DNA of 64,000 nucleotides, from the sequence record OR352953.1; one strand, written 5' to 3'. A program made the translations under genes and the position numbers. Below are positions 21,253 through 38,844 of this stretch, piece by piece; positions within the stretch are counted from its first letter, which is position 1; the number at the start of each line of letters is the position of its first letter. Source of the stretch: Escherichia phage AV123. The notes under the pieces were generated by a model. It had not been told where the DNA came from. It did not search any database and was given only the letters and a program-made list of their open reading frames with translations.

Positions 21253-23412
21253 ATGAAACAGGCTATTTTTACTGTAACTCGAAATACGAGAGTAAATGCC
21301 AGTTCATTCAGCTATAAGACCGTCGATGGAACGGCGGTCGCTGGTAGAGATTATGTAGCTAAACAGGGAACAGTAACGTTCCCTTCTGATGCAGATTCTG
21401 CTACTGTAGTGGTTGATGTATATGAACGTCCGGCAAACTCTTTAGATCTTTATTTTACTCTTGAGATTACTAGCATAAGTCAAAATAACATGATGATCAA
21501 TGAAGAAATTCGTTGTGTTATTACGACTAATCAATCGAATACAACCCCGCTAACTTGGCCTGTTGTGAAGTCTAGAATGTTTGATCCTAAGTTTTGGACA
21601 ATAGATTCTCAAGCAACAGAAAGTTGTTCTATTATCTCTAATGGTGATTCTTTCACAGCAAGAATGGTTAATAGGACAGTGGCTGGTCTTGCTGGGATTA
21701 TTTGGTCAACTTACGATAAATATGATCACAAAGGATTAGGCTACCAAGAACATTCTGACTTAAGTAAAGAGAAACTTTGGTTTAAAATGGAACTTAGTCA
21801 AGGTGTTCCTGGATTAAAAGAAGAAAAATTATTGCCATCCTTAACAGTGACACTGAAGGATGAAACAGTTCATTATGTATCTCTAAACTTTTATGCAGAA
21901 GAAGTTTCAGAGGATGGTAAAACAGCAACAATAAAATTAGATTTCTCAAATTTAAAATCTGGGCCAGAAAATGATATTGTTGTTGACACTACACAGATAG
22001 ATAATATGTTCTTCTCCTTGATCTCCACAAGGTATCAAGAAATTGAAGATATTATTCCTGTAGACAATGAGGATCTTTCCTTTAAGTTTACCATACTGGA
22101 ACCTGATACGGGTTATAGTATGATGAATATGGGTAATTTAAATGTTCCAGCACACACCATAAGAATGTGTACATCTTATGATGATATGTATAACCTTACC
22201 CCAGAGCGAGTTATTTCTAACACCTACAGATTAGGTTATAGGGATATGATTAACCACTATAATGGTATGTCACACTATTATCAATTTAGTTGGGACGCTG
22301 GCTCTAATAAATGGGCTTTAAACAGAACAGAATATTTAAACCCAGCAACAGAAGCCTGGTTTGATAACTTCCACGCTAATGCAAAAGCTATGGGTTACAC
22401 AGTAATGAACTCCTTAAGTTTTGAACTTATGAGTACAGTGTGTCCTGTAGAATGGGTACAACATACTTGGAATGATGATCTTGCTGCTACAGGTTATGAG
22501 CCACCAAGTTATGTTTTATCTCCTTCAATTGATGAAGGGATGAATTATTTACAAGGTGTAATAAATAAGATAGCTTCTATATCTGCTGCTAATGATCTTC
22601 CGGTTATTATTCAGGTTGGTGAACCGTGGTGGTGGTATAACACAGCTACTAATCTACCGTGTATTTATGATTATACAACCAAAGTTGCATTTAATAATGA
22701 AACTGGATTGTATGCACAAGATGTTGGTACAGTTAAAAATTATAAAACTGGTACACCATATGATGAATATTATGCATTCCTATCTAAAACATTAGGACTG
22801 CGTGTTGCTAAATTTGCAACAGATACCAGATTAGCATATCCTGGAGCTAAAGTTACATTGTTACCATTTGTGCCATCCATTTTAGGTAATGGTATGATGG
22901 AGTTTGTTAACTTCCCTAAAGATTATTATATCCCAGAAAACTTTGACTTTTATTGTTCAGAATGTTATGATTGGTTGTTGGAAGGTAAGATGGAAAGATC
23001 TTTTGACGCTATCACAATACCTAATGAGCAACTAGGTTTTAGTTATGATAAGATACATTATCTTGCAGGGTTTGTTCCAGATGCAACTCTAGCACCATTA
23101 TATGGCTTTGATCCTGAATCAGACTACAGAACATATTTGTGGAAAATGATTATAGGTAATATTGTATTGAATGACCAGAAGTTTGTTGGTTTATATCAAT
23201 ACATATGGGCTTATCCACAAATAATGCATGATTCAATAACTATTCTTAATTCAAAATCCCAAGTTTTTTATATGGGTAATGTGCCTTTGAATTGCTATTT
23301 GCAAGATATCACTCTTAAACAGGTAAATGTTACGATTGCTACTATAAGCGGAATTACATTAGCCACTAAATCTGGAGAAGATTTAGTAACAACACAAAAA
23401 TTTTATATATAG
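21253..23412 (+). CDS. tail-associated protein with N-terminal Calx-beta-like domain
   Basis: SFSYKTVDGTAVAGRDYVAKQGTVTFPSDADSATVVVDVYER matches the Calx-beta pattern (G.A..G.DY.....TL.F). Remaining 600 aa of unknown function. Confidence 0.4.
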   Translation: MKQAIFTVTRNTRVNASSFSYKTVDGTAVAGRDYVAKQGTVTFPSDADSATVVVDVYERPANSLDLYFTLEITSISQNNMMINEEIRCVITTNQSNTTPLTWPVVKSRMFDPKFWTIDSQATESCSIISNGDSFTARMVNRTVAGLAGIIWSTYDKYDHKGLGYQEHSDLSKEKLWFKMELSQGVPGLKEEKLLPSLTVTLKDETVHYVSLNFYAEEVSEDGKTATIKLDFSNLKSGPENDIVVDTTQIDNMFFSLISTRYQEIEDIIPVDNEDLSFKFTILEPDTGYSMMNMGNLNVPAHTIRMCTSYDDMYNLTPERVISNTYRLGYRDMINHYNGMSHYYQFSWDAGSNKWALNRTEYLNPATEAWFDNFHANAKAMGYTVMNSLSFELMSTVCPVEWVQHTWNDDLAATGYEPPSYVLSPSIDEGMNYLQGVINKIASISAANDLPVIIQVGEPWWWYNTATNLPCIYDYTTKVAFNNETGLYAQDVGTVKNYKTGTPYDEYYAFLSKTLGLRVAKFATDTRLAYPGAKVTLLPFVPSILGNGMMEFVNFPKDYYIPENFDFYCSECYDWLLEGKMERSFDAITIPNEQLGFSYDKIHYLAGFVPDATLAPLYGFDPESDYRTYLWKMIIGNIVLNDQKFVGLYQYIWAYPQIMHDSITILNSKSQVFYMGNVPLNCYLQDITLKQVNVTIATISGITLATKSGEDLVTTQKFYI

Positions 23413-23420
23413 GAGTAAAA

Positions 23421-25616
23421 ATGTCAACTACAATTACTAATTTACCCGAAACATCAAAAGTTAATGGTTCAGATTACCTGGTTTTAGATCAACCTAATAA
23501 AACTGTTAAAACCACAGTTTCCAACTTTCTTACTGACACTGGGGTGGTTTTAGCCACCCAGTTGAAAGATACAGGTGGAGCAGATTTAATACAATCCTCA
23601 AATGGTAATACTGTTCAGGAAGAGTTGAATAACAATCTTCTTAATGATCGTGAACTATGGCATCGTAGTCTTGCTGAGGCAGGGTTAACTCTTGTCAACG
23701 GTAGCTTTGAAGATGGCGCTATATTAAATAATAAGACGGATGCTGTTTGGTATATTGCAGGTGGACAGTGCTATACATGGGGTGGTGCTTTCCCTAAAGC
23801 TGTTCCCGCTGACTCAACCCCTGAAACATCCGGTGGTGTTGGGCCGGGTGCGTGGGTTTTGGTGAACGCCACCACCCAGCTACCTTATGTCACCCCTGAA
23901 ATTTATGGTGCAAAGGGTGATGGCGTAACTGACGACTTGACCGCGATACAAGCGGCATTAGATTCAGGTAAAGATGTAATTTTTTCTAAAAAATATACAG
24001 TATCAGCCCGTTTAACTTTGAAAACTAATAACCAGACTCTACAATTTATTAATGGGTCTTCTTTGATGTGCAATGTACCGACAGTTACCTTGCTGTATGG
24101 TTCTGGTGTTACAGGTGTCAAAATCTTTAATGCTCGTCTTGCCTCCAGTTCAGGTTCTACCAACACATATAATGGTTCTTGTGTTTGGTTAGATACATGC
24201 TCATATTGTTGCATTGAAGATTGTGTGTTTTCTAACTATAAAGCCTCGGCGGTATTTCTAAATAACTCAAGTTATTGTAATGTTGTGAGATGCACATTTT
24301 TGGGATCTCCGGGGGCTGCTGGTGACGTGACTATGTGGCGTTCCAATGTGGGGCACTTGATTTCTGATAACAATATGGTTTCTGGTTCAGATACTGCTAT
24401 TGTTTTGCAAACAATTGATGATGGGGACCATTCTAATGCCAACAGAATAGTTAACAATACTATTGAAAATTGTACGCGGTATGGTATAGTCGTTTATAAC
24501 AATCTGGAAACAAAGACAGGGACACTCACCAATACATTGGTACAAGGGAACACCATTAAGAATATTTATGGTAATGTTCTTAATACCACAACCCAAACAT
24601 ATACTTACGGATCAGGGATATACATTTTGTCTGCCGAAGGTATCAAAGTGATTGGGAATACCATAGATCTCACAAATCAAAACACCGATTCTACGACACT
24701 TTCACCAGCGTGTATTGGTGTGAACGCAACATCTGAAGCCATTATTTCCAATAATATAATTTCTCGTGGGGCTTATTATGGGATTATGATTTCAGATGCA
24801 CTACAGCAGGGGGTAGGGACTAACGCCAATTCTGAATCATTTAAACCAAATTCTACTGTCGTTGTTGCTAACAATATTATTAAAGCATGTTCCCGTAGCG
24901 GGTTGTATATCTTTAATCATCATAATGTTAAATGTGTGGGTAATATCACTATTTCCAACACACAAAATGGGGTTCTCACAGGTGCTGATAATGCGTTATA
25001 TCCAACTTTAAACAATATTGAAATTCTTTCGCACACTTCCAGAGAAAATACTATGGCTGGTCTGTCAATAACAAAATGTGATACCCCTACGATTGATGTA
25101 TCAGAATGTAAGGATAATTCGGGAGATGGAATCTATTGTTCTTCAATAAATGCTGTTATCAAAGTGGGGAGCGTAATTCGGAACAACAGAGGGATCGTGA
25201 TTGCAGCTTCCGGTTGTTCAATAATGGGCGGTAGAGTCACAGGGAATACTACAGGAATATTATCTACTCTTAGTTATAAGTTGATTTCTGCTTATGTAGC
25301 TGGTAATACTACAGATTATTCTGGGGATTTCGGTCCAATTTTGTCCTACAAAGGTAACTCTACACCATCAGTCAAAGACAGAGATACGATCATCCTGAGC
25401 GATGCCACTACCATAACCGATTTCACTGATGGTGTGTTGGGCCAGACAATTAAGATTAGGGCCACAGTTAATGGAACGGTTATTTCTCATAATTCATCCG
25501 GTATACGTCTTAAAGGGAATACCTCATTCTCTATGCAAGCTGGAGAAACATTGACGTTAACTAAATTTTACACGAACCAATGGGATGAAATATCTAGAAA
25601 AACCGTAACCGAATAA
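23421..25616 (+). CDS. tailspike protein with pectate-lyase-like right-handed beta-helix (putative polysaccharide depolymerase)
   Basis: N-terminal anchor motif (SDYLVLDQPNKTVKTTVSNFL), then YGAKGDGVTDDLTAIQAAL (pectate-lyase-3 type hallmark), then many repeats of the form NN.I..C.R.G consistent with beta-helix rungs. Confidence 0.65.
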   Translation: MSTTITNLPETSKVNGSDYLVLDQPNKTVKTTVSNFLTDTGVVLATQLKDTGGADLIQSSNGNTVQEELNNNLLNDRELWHRSLAEAGLTLVNGSFEDGAILNNKTDAVWYIAGGQCYTWGGAFPKAVPADSTPETSGGVGPGAWVLVNATTQLPYVTPEIYGAKGDGVTDDLTAIQAALDSGKDVIFSKKYTVSARLTLKTNNQTLQFINGSSLMCNVPTVTLLYGSGVTGVKIFNARLASSSGSTNTYNGSCVWLDTCSYCCIEDCVFSNYKASAVFLNNSSYCNVVRCTFLGSPGAAGDVTMWRSNVGHLISDNNMVSGSDTAIVLQTIDDGDHSNANRIVNNTIENCTRYGIVVYNNLETKTGTLTNTLVQGNTIKNIYGNVLNTTTQTYTYGSGIYILSAEGIKVIGNTIDLTNQNTDSTTLSPACIGVNATSEAIISNNIISRGAYYGIMISDALQQGVGTNANSESFKPNSTVVVANNIIKACSRSGLYIFNHHNVKCVGNITISNTQNGVLTGADNALYPTLNNIEILSHTSRENTMAGLSITKCDTPTIDVSECKDNSGDGIYCSSINAVIKVGSVIRNNRGIVIAASGCSIMGGRVTGNTTGILSTLSYKLISAYVAGNTTDYSGDFGPILSYKGNSTPSVKDRDTIILSDATTITDFTDGVLGQTIKIRATVNGTVISHNSSGIRLKGNTSFSMQAGETLTLTKFYTNQWDEISRKTVTE

Positions 25617-32793: not shown

Positions 32794-34755
32794 GTGATTT
32801 TAACACGTCCAAATAGTGCCATTGCAGACATGGTAGAGTCTCGCTATAGAAAGCGTAGAAGTTTTGCAAGTGGTTTTACCTTAAGAGATGCTCGTGAAGC
32901 ATTGCTCTTTGAAACTGACGGTAACTACTATCAGTGGAAAGGTTCTCTACCTAAAGTTGTACCTGCTAACTCTACTCCTACATCTACTGGAGGGATTTCA
33001 GATACAGCTTGGAAAAATGTGGGTAATGCAGATGACATTGCTCAAATAGAATCAGAATTAGATGCTATTGAAGCTGAAATTGAAGATCTTAGAGAATCCA
33101 TTCCAGAAGCTGGTAAATCAGCTTACCAGATTGCCGTAGACAATGGTTTCCAAGGTACTGAGACAGAGTGGTTGGCTTCTTTAAAAGGTGATCCAGGTGC
33201 TCCATTAAAGCTGCTAGGGACGCTATCTAATACCAACCAATTACCTACAACTGGAAACAATGCAGGAGATGCATGGATTGTAGGCGAGAATATGTATGCT
33301 TGGGATGGTACTGCTTGGAGAAAAGTAAACTCACAGGGGCCAGAAGGTAAATCGGCTTATCAAGTTTGGCTTGCAGCAGGAAACCAAGGTACAGAACTAG
33401 ATTATCTTGCTTCAATTAAAGGTGATAAAGGGGAGCCTGGCCCAGAGGGGCCACAAGGTGTACCAGGTAACAATGCTAATGGTTTTGATTACCAAGGTGC
33501 AGCTAATTCCGTTTCAGATCTTCCTTCTGCATCTCCTGGAAACACATCTCAAGCATGGAATATTGGTACATATCTATACGTGTCAAACGGTGTAGAATGG
33601 ATCAATATGGGCGCTATAGTGGGGCCAAAAGGAGATAAAGGCGACAAAGGAGATAAGGGTAACACTGGTGATTCAGCTTATCAAGTCTGGTTAAACGCTG
33701 GTAACGTTGGTACTATTGACGAATATATTGCCTCTCTGAAAGGAGAAAAAGGTGATAAGGGAGATAAGGGTGATCAAGGTGAGCAGGGTATACAAGGCTT
33801 GACGGGGCCAACTGGTGCAGGGTTGACCATTATTGATATTCTGACTGACACTTCTGAACTACCACAAACTGGAGAAGATGGTGATGGTTATCTGATCAAT
33901 AATGAACTTTGGGTTTGGTTGCAAGGAGCCACACAGTGGACAAATGTTGGTCGTTTAGCTGGTACTCCAATCACTGCAAAAGGACACGTTGCGTCTGCAA
34001 GTGCACTTCCTCCTACATCCAATTACGGTGATGCTTATTTGACGGAAGATACAGGTCATCTTTACATTTACACCTATGATGAACAAACTCAAACTGCTGA
34101 ATATGTAGATATGGGTAGTTTGAAAGGTGATAAGGGTGAGAAAGGTGACGCTGGTACTAACGGTACAGACGGTGCTACTTGGATTGTTAAAACAACAGAT
34201 CCAATCTCTAGTGATGGTAAACAAGGTGATTATGCCTTTAATATCTCCACTGGCGAGGTGTTCTTAAAAACATCTGCAACTGTCTGGACTTCTCAAGGTA
34301 CACTACCTAGCATCACAGATGCACCTAGTGACGGTAAGATCTATGCTCGTAAAGATGGAGCATGGGAAGAACTAACTAGTTCTGTAGATGGTCAAGATAT
34401 AGTTCCAACAAAAGTAACAGCTAATTTTATAGAGGTTACAGCATACACCAACAACTCTGTTACAGGGGACTGGACACCTCCAGGAACACATAACATGAAT
34501 GTGTTGAATCTTACTGGTAACTCTACTATAAAAGCATGGCCTGGTGTCGAAGATAGCACAAAACCTAAACCATTCTCTGCAATAGTTTATCTTATCCAAG
34601 ATGCCACTGGGGGTCATACTGTTACTTTAGATCCATCTTACAAAGTAATTGGTTCTAGTGATATTAATACAGATCCTAACGGAGTAACAATACTACAACT
34701 AACATATTGTGGTGTTGGTGATTACGTGGATGCTATTGTTGCTAAACGCACATAA
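32794..34755 (+). CDS. tail fibre protein with collagen-like Gly-X-Y repeats and three tandem modules
   Basis: 653 aa, GTG start with AAGGAG RBS. G-X-Y runs (GDKGEPGPEGPQGVPG; GPKGDKGDKGDKGNTGD; GEKGDKGDKGDQGEQGIQGLTGPTG; GDKGEKGDAGTNGTDG). A threefold repeated module (KSAYQ..G.QGTE..WLASLKGD..; LPTTG..GDAW). Confidence 0.6.
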   Translation: MILTRPNSAIADMVESRYRKRRSFASGFTLRDAREALLFETDGNYYQWKGSLPKVVPANSTPTSTGGISDTAWKNVGNADDIAQIESELDAIEAEIEDLRESIPEAGKSAYQIAVDNGFQGTETEWLASLKGDPGAPLKLLGTLSNTNQLPTTGNNAGDAWIVGENMYAWDGTAWRKVNSQGPEGKSAYQVWLAAGNQGTELDYLASIKGDKGEPGPEGPQGVPGNNANGFDYQGAANSVSDLPSASPGNTSQAWNIGTYLYVSNGVEWINMGAIVGPKGDKGDKGDKGNTGDSAYQVWLNAGNVGTIDEYIASLKGEKGDKGDKGDQGEQGIQGLTGPTGAGLTIIDILTDTSELPQTGEDGDGYLINNELWVWLQGATQWTNVGRLAGTPITAKGHVASASALPPTSNYGDAYLTEDTGHLYIYTYDEQTQTAEYVDMGSLKGDKGEKGDAGTNGTDGATWIVKTTDPISSDGKQGDYAFNISTGEVFLKTSATVWTSQGTLPSITDAPSDGKIYARKDGAWEELTSSVDGQDIVPTKVTANFIEVTAYTNNSVTGDWTPPGTHNMNVLNLTGNSTIKAWPGVEDSTKPKPFSAIVYLIQDATGGHTVTLDPSYKVIGSSDINTDPNGVTILQLTYCGVGDYVDAIVAKRT

Positions 34756-34757
34756 TC

Positions 34758-34783
34758 AAAGCCCCTTCGGGGGCTTATTGTTT
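34758..34783 (+). terminator. rho-independent terminator
   Basis: AGCCCC-ttcg-GGGGCT followed by TATTGTTT. Confidence 0.55.
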
Positions 34784-34794
34784 AAGGAGATTAA

Positions 34795-36681
34795 ATGTAT
34801 CCTATTCCTTTATTTATGTCAACAACATCAGCTTCAGTAGTAACAGCTACATCTATAACTACTTCCTCTATTGGTATTGCAATAGTTGGTGGTAAAAAAC
34901 AACTGACATACACAGTTACACCGGAAGATGGTGCATTATTTGATATAGCTTTTTCATCTTCAGATGATACCAAAATGGTTATAGATAATAATGGTATGAT
35001 GGAGTTTGTTGCCGAAGGTGGTTTTGATGCAATAATGACAGCTAAAAATAATTTAGGTGCTGTCTTAACTGATCAATCTGGTGGTTATGCTTCAGAATTA
35101 AGTGTGTACACTGAAAGTCTATCGGCTATGGATGTAGGCACTACTCAACAGTTGGTTGCTACAATCCGTCCAGAAGGTGCTAAAGACCTTCCAGACATGG
35201 TAATTACATACACCACAACAGATCCAGAAGTAGCTACTGTAAGCTCTACAGGATTAATAACTGCTCTTAAAGATGGCAATTGCCGTATAGGTTGTACTGC
35301 AACGTATCAAGGAACAGTTGTGGCCTCTGATAGTTCTTATTTAGGTGTTAATGCTATTCCTGTTATTTCTAATGTAACAGCCGTGGCAAACAGTTATGGA
35401 GACGTTCGTGTTGCTTGGGATGTAACTGATCCGCTAGATGGTGATACTTATACTGTAGAAGTATTAGATTTAAGTGATAATAGTGTCCAGTGGACTACAA
35501 CAACCACAAATACTTACGCCTACTTTGATATCTCTGACTCTATTCCTCTTTATGGGTTTGCTCCAACATACCTTAAAATTAGCGTTAAGAGCACCAAAGC
35601 AGCAGCCGTTATCTTTAATAGCTCAATAGCTACAGATGATTCATTCATTAAAGAAGTTATTGTCTTTGCTGGACAAGATAACGTAAATGCACACTTTACA
35701 GAACTATCTGGCGCAAATAAAGCAGCAATGAGTAGCACAACAGCCCGTAATGCATATGCTACGCAACGTGGTTTAGCAAATGCTGAAGTTCTTCCGTTAA
35801 ATGCAGCTTCTGGATCATCAGCAGCAGATAAATATGCAGATGATAAAGCCGGAACAGGAACGCCAGACAACTACTGGTATGATCTGGATAACACAGCAGA
35901 TGGGCCATGCTTAACTAACTTTATCACTAAAGTCACACCTTATGCAAGTAAGGTTAAAGCAATTATTTGGGGACAAGGTGAAAATGATGCTGTATCAGCA
36001 TCTTCGACTGTTGCAGGTAGGTACAGTAACACTACACGTTACCATGATGCTACGATAGCTATCTTTGATAAGATGCGTACAATAGTTCCTGCTTCTCAAG
36101 CAAAAATTGTTTGGCAGATCCTAGGACGTTCTTATTTATATGGTGTAGAAGTTAATGGTGTGGATTGGCAGAAGTACAGAAATGTACAAAGAACCATCTC
36201 TACAGCACGTGATGATGTTATCATTGGTTCTTGGGTAGATGGTGCTGAACGTTACAGTGGTTATGTTTATGAAGAAGGTATTGATGGTCGTATCCATTAT
36301 ATTTCTTCTGTATACCAAACAGCAGCTACAAAACTTGCTAAATCGGCAGCAGACGGTACAGACTTAACATCAGCGTCACCTGTTTGGGTTGATATGTCTG
36401 TTCCAACAGGAGGAGCCGCTGTAAGACAAGCTAACCAAGATGCAATTATCTCTTGGGAACCAGCAGGATATACTAAACATTACTTCCGAAATGTAAACGT
36501 CCTCACAGCAGCAATTCTTACAGAACAAACCCTGGATACTAACACTTACACATTTACTTATGCAGATCAGGTTGAACAATATGGATTTGCAGCAGGTACA
36601 ACAGCGTTTGATGTTGCACACTATGATGCTGATAATGACGTGTTATCACCTCTTGTCAGATTTACAGTCAATGTTACATAA
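34795..36681 (+). CDS. virion-associated protein with Ig-like (Big_2-type) domains and a C-terminal SASA/SGNH-like esterase-like domain
   Basis: Big_2-like segments (e.g. TTQQLVATIRPEGAKDLPDMVITYTTTDPEVATVSSTGLITALKDGNCRIGCTA). C-terminal motifs FAGQDNVNAHF and IIWGQGENDA resemble the GQSN and WYQGESN motifs of sialate-O-acetylesterase-like enzymes, but the usual Ser is Asp here. Confidence 0.4.
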   Translation: MYPIPLFMSTTSASVVTATSITTSSIGIAIVGGKKQLTYTVTPEDGALFDIAFSSSDDTKMVIDNNGMMEFVAEGGFDAIMTAKNNLGAVLTDQSGGYASELSVYTESLSAMDVGTTQQLVATIRPEGAKDLPDMVITYTTTDPEVATVSSTGLITALKDGNCRIGCTATYQGTVVASDSSYLGVNAIPVISNVTAVANSYGDVRVAWDVTDPLDGDTYTVEVLDLSDNSVQWTTTTTNTYAYFDISDSIPLYGFAPTYLKISVKSTKAAAVIFNSSIATDDSFIKEVIVFAGQDNVNAHFTELSGANKAAMSSTTARNAYATQRGLANAEVLPLNAASGSSAADKYADDKAGTGTPDNYWYDLDNTADGPCLTNFITKVTPYASKVKAIIWGQGENDAVSASSTVAGRYSNTTRYHDATIAIFDKMRTIVPASQAKIVWQILGRSYLYGVEVNGVDWQKYRNVQRTISTARDDVIIGSWVDGAERYSGYVYEEGIDGRIHYISSVYQTAATKLAKSAADGTDLTSASPVWVDMSVPTGGAAVRQANQDAIISWEPAGYTKHYFRNVNVLTAAILTEQTLDTNTYTFTYADQVEQYGFAAGTTAFDVAHYDADNDVLSPLVRFTVNVT

Positions 36682-36683
36682 AC

Positions 36684-36712
36684 AAAAAGGAGCCTATTGG
36701 CTCCTTTTCTTT
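36684..36712. terminator. bidirectional intrinsic terminator at the strand-switch point
   Basis: AAAAGGAGCC-tatt-GGCTCCTTTTCTTTT between convergent genes; A-run on one side and T-run on the other. Confidence 0.6.
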
Positions 36713-36716
36713 TATC

Positions 36717-37148
36717 TTAATCAGTGAAAATTACGCTTACATCTTCTTTAGAGAAGAGTTTATGATCTTCACCTTTTGTCTCAAGAGTTTCATACAGGTT
36801 AAGAAGTTCTGAAACATCCTTCTCTACCAGTTTCTTCAATGTTGCAATTTTCTGTTTGCGATTCTTAATACGTTCAGCTACAACCTTACGTTGGTATCCG
36901 GCAGTACGATAACCTGAGAAAGTTACACCAGTGAGACTTGCAGTTACAGGATCGTAATGACGTTCAATCTGAAATTTATTAAAAGGTACAGCGTCATCAC
37001 GAATAATCTTACCGCCATTACTTACTTGACGAAGACCAGTAACTTGTTCCAGTCGTGCCATAGAAATCTTTGGAGACAGACCAGAGTCCAGGTTCATACC
37101 GTTGTTAATCAGTGCTTTCAGGGTGATTTTGCTGTTCAGTGTACTCAT
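36717..37148 (-). CDS. hypothetical protein
   Basis: 143 aa ORF. Start at 37148 is preceded by GGAGG and overlaps the 3' end of the methyltransferase gene by 44 nt. Confidence 0.4.
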   Translation of the reverse strand: MSTLNSKITLKALINNGMNLDSGLSPKISMARLEQVTGLRQVSNGGKIIRDDAVPFNKFQIERHYDPVTASLTGVTFSGYRTAGYQRKVVAERIKNRKQKIATLKKLVEKDVSELLNLYETLETKGEDHKLFSKEDVSVIFTD

Positions 37149-37836
37149 TTAGTCGTTCCTCCGCTTGCTTAAAAATATTTACATCGGCTTCACAGCCTAA
37201 GTATTCTCTACCTGTTAAAAGTGCCGCAACTTGTGTTGTTGCACTTCCAGAGAAGAAGTCTAAGACTACATCTCCTTCGTTGGTGTGTATATTAATAAGG
37301 TCACAAAACAAAGTCAAGTGCTTTTGTGTTGGATGAAAACGATCTGCTCCTTGATAGATAGGATACTCAAACACACCCTTATGGTAGGAAGCATTGAAGG
37401 TTGGCTTCGAACCTTTAACACAAACAATAGCCATCTCTTTAGCGTTACTAAGGTAGTTAACACCACTGTTGATGGGTACAGGGTTTGTTTTAATCCATTC
37501 AATAGTACGGAACATACGAAAACCAAGCGGTTCAAGGATTTCACGTAGCTCCTGGATCTTCCAGATATCATACCAAACTATGCAAGTACCACCTTTTCTA
37601 AGCACCCTATAGGCTTCTTTGAATACTTCTTTAAAGTAAGGAATATCTACAACATCCCAATCACCAAAGTTGTAAGATACACGGAATCTATCTGTATCTT
37701 TTCCAGTAGGCTCTCCAGATTGAAAATTTGTATCACGAGAAATAGCATATGGTGGGTCAGTAAGAATCAAATCTACACTGTTGCTTTCGAGGGTTTGCAG
37801 GTAGTTTAATGCGGTGTTGTTTACAAATTCGCTCAT
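37105..37836 (-). CDS. DNA methyltransferase, beta-class (N6-adenine or N4-cytosine)
   Basis: Motif IV LILTDPPYAIS precedes motif I VVLDFFSGSATT (order IV then I is typical of beta-class amino-MTases). RBS AAGGAGA. No adjacent restriction endonuclease recognised. Confidence 0.75.
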   Translation of the reverse strand: MSEFVNNTALNYLQTLESNSVDLILTDPPYAISRDTNFQSGEPTGKDTDRFRVSYNFGDWDVVDIPYFKEVFKEAYRVLRKGGTCIVWYDIWKIQELREILEPLGFRMFRTIEWIKTNPVPINSGVNYLSNAKEMAIVCVKGSKPTFNASYHKGVFEYPIYQGADRFHPTQKHLTLFCDLINIHTNEGDVVLDFFSGSATTQVAALLTGREYLGCEADVNIFKQAEERLNEYTEQQNHPESTD

Positions 37837-37853
37837 TATATCTCCTTCAAAGA

Positions 37854-37877
37854 AAAGGAGCCGTTAGGCTCCTTATA
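37854..37877 (-). terminator. intrinsic terminator (minus strand)
   Basis: GGAGCC-gtta-GGCTCC hairpin with a U tract on the minus strand. Same stem sequence as the 36684 terminator. Confidence 0.5.
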
Positions 37878-37896
37878 TTCACACAATATTTAACTA

Positions 37897-38844
37897 TTAG
37901 AAACAGTGCAGGAAGTTTCGACCATACTGCAAACCAATAGGAGCAAATGGGATATCATCATCGAAATCTTGAACAACAGGTTCTGGCTCTTTCGGTGCTG
38001 GCTCTTTCTTCTCTACTTTTTTAGTTTCTTTCTTAACTTCTTGTACTGGGGTAGACATTCCACGGATAGCAGCAGCTACTTTATCAGACAAAGCAAGAAC
38101 TTCACGAGCAGCTTCAATAATCTCTTCTGCCGTTACAGTTTTACCTGTATGATCACGACAAGCATTAAGAATTGCGTGTCCAACTGAAGCACCAAGATCA
38201 TAATCAGTTACATCAACGCCACGATCTTTAGCAATTTCAGCTTTCAGAGTAACAGTTGCAGATTGTACCACACCAGCCAAATCGAAAGCATCACCTTTCA
38301 CACCAGCACGTAGAAGCTCCAGAGCGCCGTTTACAGCGTGTCCTGTTTCAATCCCTACGGTATCACGTTTTTTGTAGTTAGGCTTGCTACCATCGTTATT
38401 AGATGGCTTATTTCCACCTTTTGAAGAAGATTGTGCTTGCTGAACACCTTCTGTTGAAAGAATAGTGATTTTACCTTTAGAGGAATTGTAGTATGTTTTG
38501 CCATTCCATTCAGAAGGTTTAACATCCATAGTTAGTTCTACACCTTTTTCGATAGTAACCCACTTATCACCATCTTTAACTTGCAGGTTTTCATGTTCTG
38601 GGTGCAGTTTAACTTCACCTAAGCTAACCCAAACACCTTTATCATCAGCACCAGCACCTTTCTCTTTAATAAGCAGAGATGCTTTGTGAGTTGATTCAAT
38701 TTTCTTATCTGGCTGACCTGCAACCTTAATATAAGAGACTTTCATTTCATCAAACTTATCTAGTTTGACATATTCGACAATACCTTCAGCCCAGAATGCT
38801 TCTTTTTTAGTACGGCGGTCGATTTCAGAATTAATTACTGGCAT
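37897..38844 (-). CDS. single-stranded DNA-binding protein-like protein carrying an SSB C-terminal-tip motif
   Basis: Contains DFDDDIPF, identical to the last 8 residues of E. coli SSB, preceded by a Lys/Glu/Pro-rich linker; here it is followed by 15 more residues (APIGLQYGRNFLHCF). N-terminal half is beta-rich (possible OB fold). RBS AGAGGAG. Confidence 0.45.
   Translation of the reverse strand: MPVINSEIDRRTKKEAFWAEGIVEYVKLDKFDEMKVSYIKVAGQPDKKIESTHKASLLIKEKGAGADDKGVWVSLGEVKLHPEHENLQVKDGDKWVTIEKGVELTMDVKPSEWNGKTYYNSSKGKITILSTEGVQQAQSSSKGGNKPSNNDGSKPNYKKRDTVGIETGHAVNGALELLRAGVKGDAFDLAGVVQSATVTLKAEIAKDRGVDVTDYDLGASVGHAILNACRDHTGKTVTAEEIIEAAREVLALSDKVAAAIRGMSTPVQEVKKETKKVEKKEPAPKEPEPVVQDFDDDIPFAPIGLQYGRNFLHCF

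Follow-up and report, generated by a model that had tools for sequence, protein, structure and literature searches.

We analysed a stretch of 64,000 nucleotides (hereafter the window) from the genome of Escherichia phage AV123 (OR352953.1), a phi92-like E. coli myophage of the genus Justusliebigvirus, with a focus on the open reading frame (ORF) at 34795..36681 on the plus strand. This gene, referred to here as ORF 34795, runs from ATG to TAA at exactly the coordinates given in the initial annotation, encodes a protein of 628 aa plus stop (WPK37341.1), and is 99.2% identical in nucleotide sequence to a gene of phage muut. It is the final gene of the rightward tail-fibre operon (the lateral tail-fibre cluster), downstream of a colanidase tailspike gene and then a collagen-like fibre gene, and its product matches PHROG 32204 ('tail protein') over the full length. 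The protein carries a SASA-type SGNH domain in which the expected nucleophile Ser is replaced by Asp, set in a cassette that corresponds to the C-terminal half of receptor-binding proteins related to gp65 of phage N4.

All domains and motifs described below lie on the plus strand. Two Big_2 (bacterial Ig-like) domains occupy the N-terminus, at 34837..35064 (aa ~15-90) and 35092..35355 (aa ~100-187), in agreement with the earlier suggestion of two such segments. Pfam PF02368 (Big_2) passes its threshold in two stretches (53.6-62.3 bits vs a cut-off of 22.8; E=2e-14, or 4e-17 when aa 1-192 were searched), the best stretch in the second domain being aa 112-170; PHROG Ig-domain families match the first domain at aa 10-87, and the second matches a carbohydrate-binding protein of known structure (PDB 6n1a, E=7e-4). 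They are followed by a beta-sandwich segment (segment A; 35362..35619, aa ~190-275), by the SGNH/SASA-like domain, a putative pseudo-esterase (35647..36384, aa ~285-530), and by another beta-sandwich (segment B; 36394..36678, aa 534-628), which is an allele-specific C-terminal module and ends the protein in the short allele described below. The two beta-sandwich segments show weak similarity to each other (E=0.014). Colinearity with gp65-type proteins starts in segment A, which matches residues 1301-1378 of ORF69 from Achromobacter phage phiAxp-3 and also lies inside the colinear matches to the relatives P0008, P0006 and others that begin at aa ~193; segment B has its homologs in the domain repeats of N4 gp65 (1082-1171 and 1204-1276). 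A beta-sandwich segment does precede the SGNH domain, as had been proposed under the name Fn3-like, but a Pfam search of both segments and of the N-terminal 30 aa gave nothing significant, and 'Fn3' is therefore only a loose description.

To characterize the SGNH-like domain, an exhaustive HMMER search with aa 270-540 replaced a word-indexed homolog search that had given only two near-identical fragments; it retrieved 79 relatives, 15 of them below 1e-30. An alignment of 50 sequences (A1) was used for profile searches and for an AlphaFold2 (AF2) model. The query scored 15.1-16.8 bits against Pfam SASA (PF03629), below the gathering cut-off of 24.8, and its motif resemblance to SASA taken alone would be weak evidence. 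The profile search that the initial annotation had put forward as a check thus fails for the query taken alone, but SASA is matched at E<=0.01 by 32 of the 50 aligned relatives, the best of them at 2.4e-14, and with 25.0 bits P0004, an ortholog, lies above the cut-off. Searched against the PDB, the A1 profile found N4 gp65 (5e-78) and the SASA structures 2apj (3e-5) and 1zmb (4.5e-5). The AF2 model from A1 (pLDDT 95.3, pTM 0.92) has the three-layer alpha/beta/alpha fold with five parallel strands by which the SGNH superfamily is recognized, so that the proposed structure-prediction check came out positive, and its closest structural match is the sheath domain of N4 gp65 (TM 0.78). A single-sequence AF2 model of aa 265-628 was discarded for its low confidence (pLDDT 31.8), and no conclusions were drawn from it. 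From the profile searches and the model we conclude that the domain is a true SASA-type SGNH fold.

The GQDN and WGQGEND motifs reported earlier are present as block I (G293-Q294-D295-N296, 35671..35682) and block III (W392-G-Q-G-E-N-D398, 35968..35988, with the SASA-type QGE motif). They align with GQSN and W(Y/H)QGESD, the latter being WYQGESD in 2apj and WHQGESD in 1zmb, with a family consensus of WxQGExD. The codon of D295 (GAT, 35677-35679) stands at the position of the block I Ser that is the catalytic nucleophile of the SGNH superfamily (PMC9487903), and in the AF2 model this residue opens the helix that follows beta-strand 1. That Asp takes the place of the expected Ser, as noted from the outset, is borne out by the alignment: the column holds Ser in 68 of 88 aligned block I instances, Ala in five, Asp in four and a few other residues in the rest, and the only Asp carriers are the query, its long-allele twin, one fragment and the Av-05-type ortholog (GGDN). 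Among the sequences of the Justusliebigvirus and Avunavirus clade with block I aligned, Asp is invariant (30 of 30). In a neighbour-joining tree the Asp clade is monophyletic and nested among Ser-bearing lineages, and Ser was lost independently in other lineages. The invariance of Asp in the clade would be consistent with a loss of catalysis in its common ancestor. A sequencing error as the source of the Asp was rejected, because any Ser codon would have to change at two positions to become GAT, and every genome compared has the same codon.

In the query, the remainder of the pocket is largely retained. The 'inverted' oxyanion hole of SASA enzymes is defined by a Gln adjoining the Ser, together with the (H)QGE motif (PMC9487903), and both are present in the query, as in SASA/CE6 (Q294 and Q394-G395-E396). 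The block II glycine, G340 (35812..35814), is Gly in 90 of ~115 aligned domains. Block V (G498-R-I-H501, 36286..36297) keeps the general-base His that is typical of the superfamily and found in 68 of 82 aligned domains, and its DxxH Asp is replaced by Gly; this Gly at -3 of H501 is shared with the nearest Ser-bearing relatives (GW(I/V)HY), distant members have DxxH, and EcNanS is likewise without the block V Asp (PMC9487903). Q294, G340, QGE and H501 are all kept in the Justusliebigvirus type; in the Avunavirus type the block II Gly is Ile, the block III Gln is Leu, and one member has Gln for the His. Judged from these residues, the query retains the SASA pocket signature without the nucleophile. 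Between alleles, the ratio of non-synonymous to synonymous substitution rates (dN/dS) is 0.07-0.12 in the SGNH domain and ~0.2 overall, which indicates strong purifying selection, and the domain is therefore maintained as a folded, functional module and not decaying. We found no description of the nucleophile replacement or of its clade-wide conservation in the searched literature.

Over residues 193-624, the protein is colinear with the C-terminal half of 'non-contractile sheath/receptor-binding' proteins of the gp65 type that consist of a single chain (P0008 782-1212; P0006 667-1080; phiAxp-3 ORF69 765-1085; and others). It shares with them a C-terminal cassette in which the SGNH-like domain stands between a beta-sandwich and one or more beta-sandwich repeats, and the match to N4 gp65 itself has E=6.5e-24. 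The nearest Ser-bearing relatives (P0006, P0008, P0013 and P0009) carry NCTSP_N and TIM-barrel_NCTSP, which Pfam names after the non-contractile tail sheath proteins of N4 gp65 type; neither was found by Pfam in the ORF 34795 product. Both were found unexpectedly in a candidate partner gene of the same fibre cluster, ORF 21253 (21253..23412, plus strand, 719 aa), which has Calx-beta at aa 4-80, NCTSP_N at 109-268 (E=1e-81) and TIM-barrel_NCTSP at 299-660 (E=5e-21), and which matches phiAxp-3 gp64 aa 114-374 (the barrel) at 2e-32. This ORF is the 'deacetylase' fibre linked to N4 by Maffei et al. (PMC8594841), and its domains correspond to a gp64-like barrel plus the N-terminal half of gp65-type sheath/receptor-binding proteins. 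Sixteen single-chain proteins are matched colinearly by both ORFs, tiled end to end; in P0008 (1215 aa), e.g., ORF 21253 aa 109-677 fall on 155-737 and ORF 34795 aa 193-624 on 782-1212. What ORF 34795 encodes is thus one half, the C-terminal one, of a gp65-type receptor-binding protein, and the Big_2 pair takes the place of the N-terminal anchor. The products of the two ORFs may be physically associated, and the two separately encoded halves might reassemble on the baseplate as an N4-sheath-like receptor-binding unit; a description of this split-gene relationship was not found in the searched literature. The unsplit relative P0006 adjoins a contractile-sheath gene, and the protein type is therefore not confined to podophages and the name 'sheath' not transferable; P0008 sits on a contig of 3.9 kb, and its genomic context is uninformative. 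In the course of these comparisons the N-terminus of gp64 (aa ~18-83, with a block V-like 'GQIHY') was seen to match the C-terminal third of the SGNH family profile, both in phiAxp-3 gp64 (5848-7125 of its compared stretch) and in N4 gp64 (PDB 9lc0_M). In gp65, SGNH copy 1 (aa ~430-603), which has the Ser, ends just short of that third, and the gp64:gp65 heterodimer may thus complete one SGNH domain across two chains.

Two allele classes occur in the genus, a short one of 628 aa, to which the window belongs, and a long one of ~940 aa in about half of the genus. They diverge from ~aa 535, where dS rises to ~1.2 from 0.02-0.15 upstream, so that a recombination junction is placed near aa 535. In the long allele (e.g., Bas61, 13600-14829 of the compared stretch) a diverged beta-sandwich is followed by a distal domain of 314 aa. 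A Pfam search of this extra domain gave nothing; by PDB sequence search it is homologous to fibre-tip domains (gp17 9occ, 5e-18; the head-spike fibre of RcGTA 6tb9, 9e-14), and the window allele ends without it. The full-length ORF is intact in ~50 independent isolates and many metagenomic contigs, and an ortholog with conserved synteny and ~40% identity is found in Avunavirus. Two lesions within window 35385-35803, a deletion of ~226 nt (window 35385-~35610, aa ~198-272), which takes most of segment A, and an indel of 2 nt near aa 335, have broken the phi92 gene into gp152 and gp153 (2502-4164 of the compared stretch), and the part coding for GQDN falls outside the annotated ORFs. The homology to N4 gp65, the short allele without a tip domain and the disruption in phi92 had been missed by the initial annotation. 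We also considered the ORF 34795 product as a shared binder of NGR/NfrA in N4 and phi92-like phages, an idea that is weakened because the rV5-type Vequintavirus, also reported to be NGR-dependent (PMC11990801), does not have the module. Eryne, reported as a poor NGR user (PMC11984140), has the short allele, and Bas60-62, reported as NGR-dependent, have the long allele; this correlation is anecdotal, because other short-allele phages were isolated on K-12.

Taken together, we favour, with a probability of roughly 0.5, the interpretation that ORF 34795 encodes an accessory tail-fibre subunit of the phi92-like myophage, an adhesin or a scaffold, in which the SASA-type domain, a pseudo-esterase without hydrolytic activity, serves in glycan binding or as a structural part. 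The two Big_2 domains are followed by the gp65-type cassette of beta-sandwich, SASA-type SGNH domain and beta-sandwich, and Asp has stood in the place of the nucleophile Ser since the Justusliebigvirus and Avunavirus orthologs last shared an ancestor. The SGNH domain would act as a binding module for a surface glycan without hydrolysis, or would serve as a stiff part of the fibre. At the distal end it would display a separate tip domain in the long allele, a position that it would fill itself in the short allele of the window. The tail-fibre context is given by the position at the operon end, the gene's own ribosome-binding site (RBS), the PHROG assignment as tail protein, and the colinearity together with ORF 21253. 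With the nucleophile Ser lost, the domain is most likely unable to run an acyl-enzyme esterase cycle, and a precedent for a pseudo-esterase exists in the second SGNH copy of N4 gp65, which has Gln at the nucleophile position and belongs to a sheath/receptor-binding protein. The gp65 homolog of phiAxp-3 (ORF69) provides a further link, since its residues 795-1195 are necessary and sufficient for binding of lipopolysaccharide (PMC5862860) and overlap its SGNH copy 2 (724-999) and the next beta-sandwiches, which would be support, if indirect, for a receptor-binding role of the cassette. By inference, the product would be located in the virion, bind glycans and lack catalysis. Of the options that the initial annotation had raised, the inactive, binding-only domain is thus the best supported; an active virion esterase or receptor-destroying enzyme is unlikely, as the nucleophile is missing clade-wide and copy 2 of N4 gp65 is also without Ser.

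Several observations weigh against this interpretation. The phiAxp-3 evidence is indirect because the binding fragment starts in mid-domain. The intact Q294, G340, QGE and H501 in Justusliebigvirus would also suit a retained, altered catalysis. Neither virion proteomics for the ORF 34795 product nor statements on phi92 gp152/gp153 were found in the literature, and the cryo-electron microscopy (cryo-EM) paper on phi92 makes no mention of the ortholog. The gene is disrupted in phi92, the long allele of ALITA is split into two ORFs, and neither rV5-type Vequintavirus nor Phapecoctavirus has the module; any role must therefore be accessory.

The domain could instead be purely structural. The SGNH-like domain and the beta-sandwiches would then act in a branched tail fibre only as a stiff spacer or for docking, with no ligand of their own, and any receptor contact would come from the distal tip domain that is missing in the window allele. 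This would agree with the ten such domains that build the N4 gp65 sheath, with the fact that the closest structural match is that very sheath domain, with the dedicated fibre-tip domain of the long allele, and with nucleophile loss being common in the family (20 of 88 domains). However, Q294, G340, QGE, H501 and the Asp are more tightly conserved than a spacer needs, and the allele without a tip is intact in about half of the genus under purifying selection, suggesting that the remaining domains function alone; we consider a purely structural role rather unlikely. The same conserved residues might point to the opposite, an unconventional enzyme in which D295, as nucleophile or general base, works with H501 and the SASA-type oxyanion hole to de-acylate or otherwise modify surface polysaccharide. 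The Asp is invariant (30/30), the other pocket residues are retained in Justusliebigvirus under strong purifying selection, non-canonical dyads or arrangements that work through water have precedents among SGNH and carbohydrate esterase enzymes (PMC9487903; also the title of PMC12313940), and some GenBank records read 'tail carbohydrate esterase'. Against this, the nucleophile of the superfamily is described as Ser (PMC9487903), and the 'esterase' labels in GenBank are automated transfers from fold or family, not assays. An O-acetylesterase acting by the canonical mechanism seems unlikely from the residues present, and an unconventional enzyme is improbable in our view. To our knowledge, there is no SGNH enzyme with an Asp nucleophile or with such a catalytic arrangement, and it appears quite improbable that the invariant Asp, the His and the SASA-type oxyanion hole would constitute a working centre, with Asp as nucleophile or water-activating base, on a host glycan.

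The split gene in phi92 and ALITA, the lack of the distal domain in the window allele and the lack of the module in rV5-type relatives might also be taken to mean that a horizontally acquired gp65-type module persists as a dispensable remnant that is being lost and has no role in infection. The dN/dS of ~0.1 in the SGNH domain and ~0.2 overall between alleles, the intact ORF in ~50 isolates and in metagenomic contigs, and the synteny in Avunavirus at ~40% identity all speak to the contrary, and we give a remnant little credence. Finally, Ig-like domains are common in decoration proteins, and a Hoc-like attachment through these domains had been suggested earlier; it would be to the capsid or tail surface and would provide weak, non-specific adherence. 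The suggestion draws on the two N-terminal Big_2 domains and on the lack of a Tail_spike_N-type anchor, and the latter observation is correct: Tail_spike_N (TSP1/Gp66) begins both the collagen-like fibre (32794-34755, plus strand, 653 aa) and the beta-helix tailspike (23421-25616, plus strand, 731 aa) of the window, and none was found in the ORF 34795 product. Hoc-like attachment itself found no support. The gene lies in the tail-fibre operon and not in the head module, and the C-terminal two-thirds of the protein (aa 193-624, half of a gp65-type protein) have their homolog in a tail receptor-binding protein. A fibre-tip domain closes the long allele. In a PHROG search, shared Ig domains were the only match to head proteins, and the head components listed in the cryo-EM paper on phi92 are the major capsid protein gp124 and the cement protein gp123, not this protein. 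We regard a decoration protein of this kind as very improbable.

Compared with known systems, the ORF 34795 product is closest to N4 gp65 (PDB 9lc0, 9yf4; PHROG 15324), with which it shares the cassette of beta-sandwich, SGNH-like domain and beta-sandwich at aa ~193-624. The closest solved domain, copy 2 of N4 gp65, is also without Ser, with Gln in N4 and Asp in the query, whereas most N4-like homologs have Ser at this position. Unlike N4 gp65, in which ten such domains pack into a six-fold sheath around the short, non-contractile tube of the tail and which binds NfrA, the query has neither the NCTSP_N anchor nor the TIM barrel but two Big_2 domains instead, and only one SGNH-like copy and one trailing beta-sandwich; its phage is contractile-tailed (a myovirus by taxonomy), so that there is no 'sheath' in the N4 sense. 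From the SASA/CE6 enzymes (PF03629; 1zmb, 2apj, EcNanS 3pt5) it differs in the Asp at the catalytic Ser, in the score below the Pfam gathering cut-off, and in the embedding of the domain in a phage fibre protein between beta-sandwiches. Among phage tailspikes and fibres whose SGNH esterase domain is active, G7C gp63.1 (4qnl) and the tailspikes of Possum and Moo19/B2, described in titles and abstracts as deacetylases by experiment, are GDSL-type, whereas the query is of the SASA/gp65 type without Ser. A precedent for an SGNH cleft as glycan-binding site is offered, going by the titles of the structure entries, by the CE2 esterases CtCE2 and CjCE2B (2wao, 2w9x). CE2 enzymes have a Ser-His dyad without the block V Asp (PMC9487903); unlike the query they keep the Ser, remain esterases, and are bacterial plant-cell-wall enzymes.

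The value of phi92-like phages lies in a very broad and multivalent recognition of hosts, and the proteins that form their ill-resolved fibre II are still open (PMC13450770). Between them, ORF 34795 and ORF 21253 have every kind of domain that makes up the N4 gp64/gp65 receptor-binding sheath; they are concrete candidates for fibre II and offer a testable link to the dependence on the N4-type glycan (NGR) reported for phi92-like phages. The clade would also represent a natural, selectively maintained Ser-to-Asp pseudo-esterase, and could show how an SGNH pocket is converted into a lectin-like site. On the whole, the results refine the picture of a known protein type in small ways and do not amount to a new system. 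Orthologs are labelled in GenBank as 'tail protein', 'lateral tail fiber protein', 'tail carbohydrate esterase' or 'non-contractile tail sheath', and the general kinship of ORF 34795 is already known to automated pipelines; the last two labels are misleading for this ORF, because the esterase nucleophile is absent and the phage tail is contractile.

With respect to expression signals, an RBS (AAGGAG) can be read from the sequence at 34784..34789 on the plus strand, 5 nt 5' of the ATG, and the phi92 annotation has an AGGAG RBS at the equivalent site. Between the collagen-like fibre gene and ORF 34795, a scan for terminator-like elements found a G+C-rich hairpin, AAGCCCCTTCGGGGGCTT, at 34759..34776 on the plus strand, which is a weak terminator-like site and might attenuate the expression of ORF 34795. 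A bidirectional intrinsic-terminator hairpin at 36685..36708 parts ORF 34795 from the convergent early/middle genes. The cumulative GC skew of the window peaks at ~36000-38000, where the rightward structural genes meet leftward genes, among them those for a Dam-like methyltransferase and a DNA polymerase, and the terminator at 36685..36708 marks the switch. Four records, MG065639, MG065656, MG065689 and MG065645, are entered as 'Campylobacter phage' with host C. jejuni but are ~99% identical to E. coli Justusliebigvirus over the gene and its flanks, and their host label looks doubtful.

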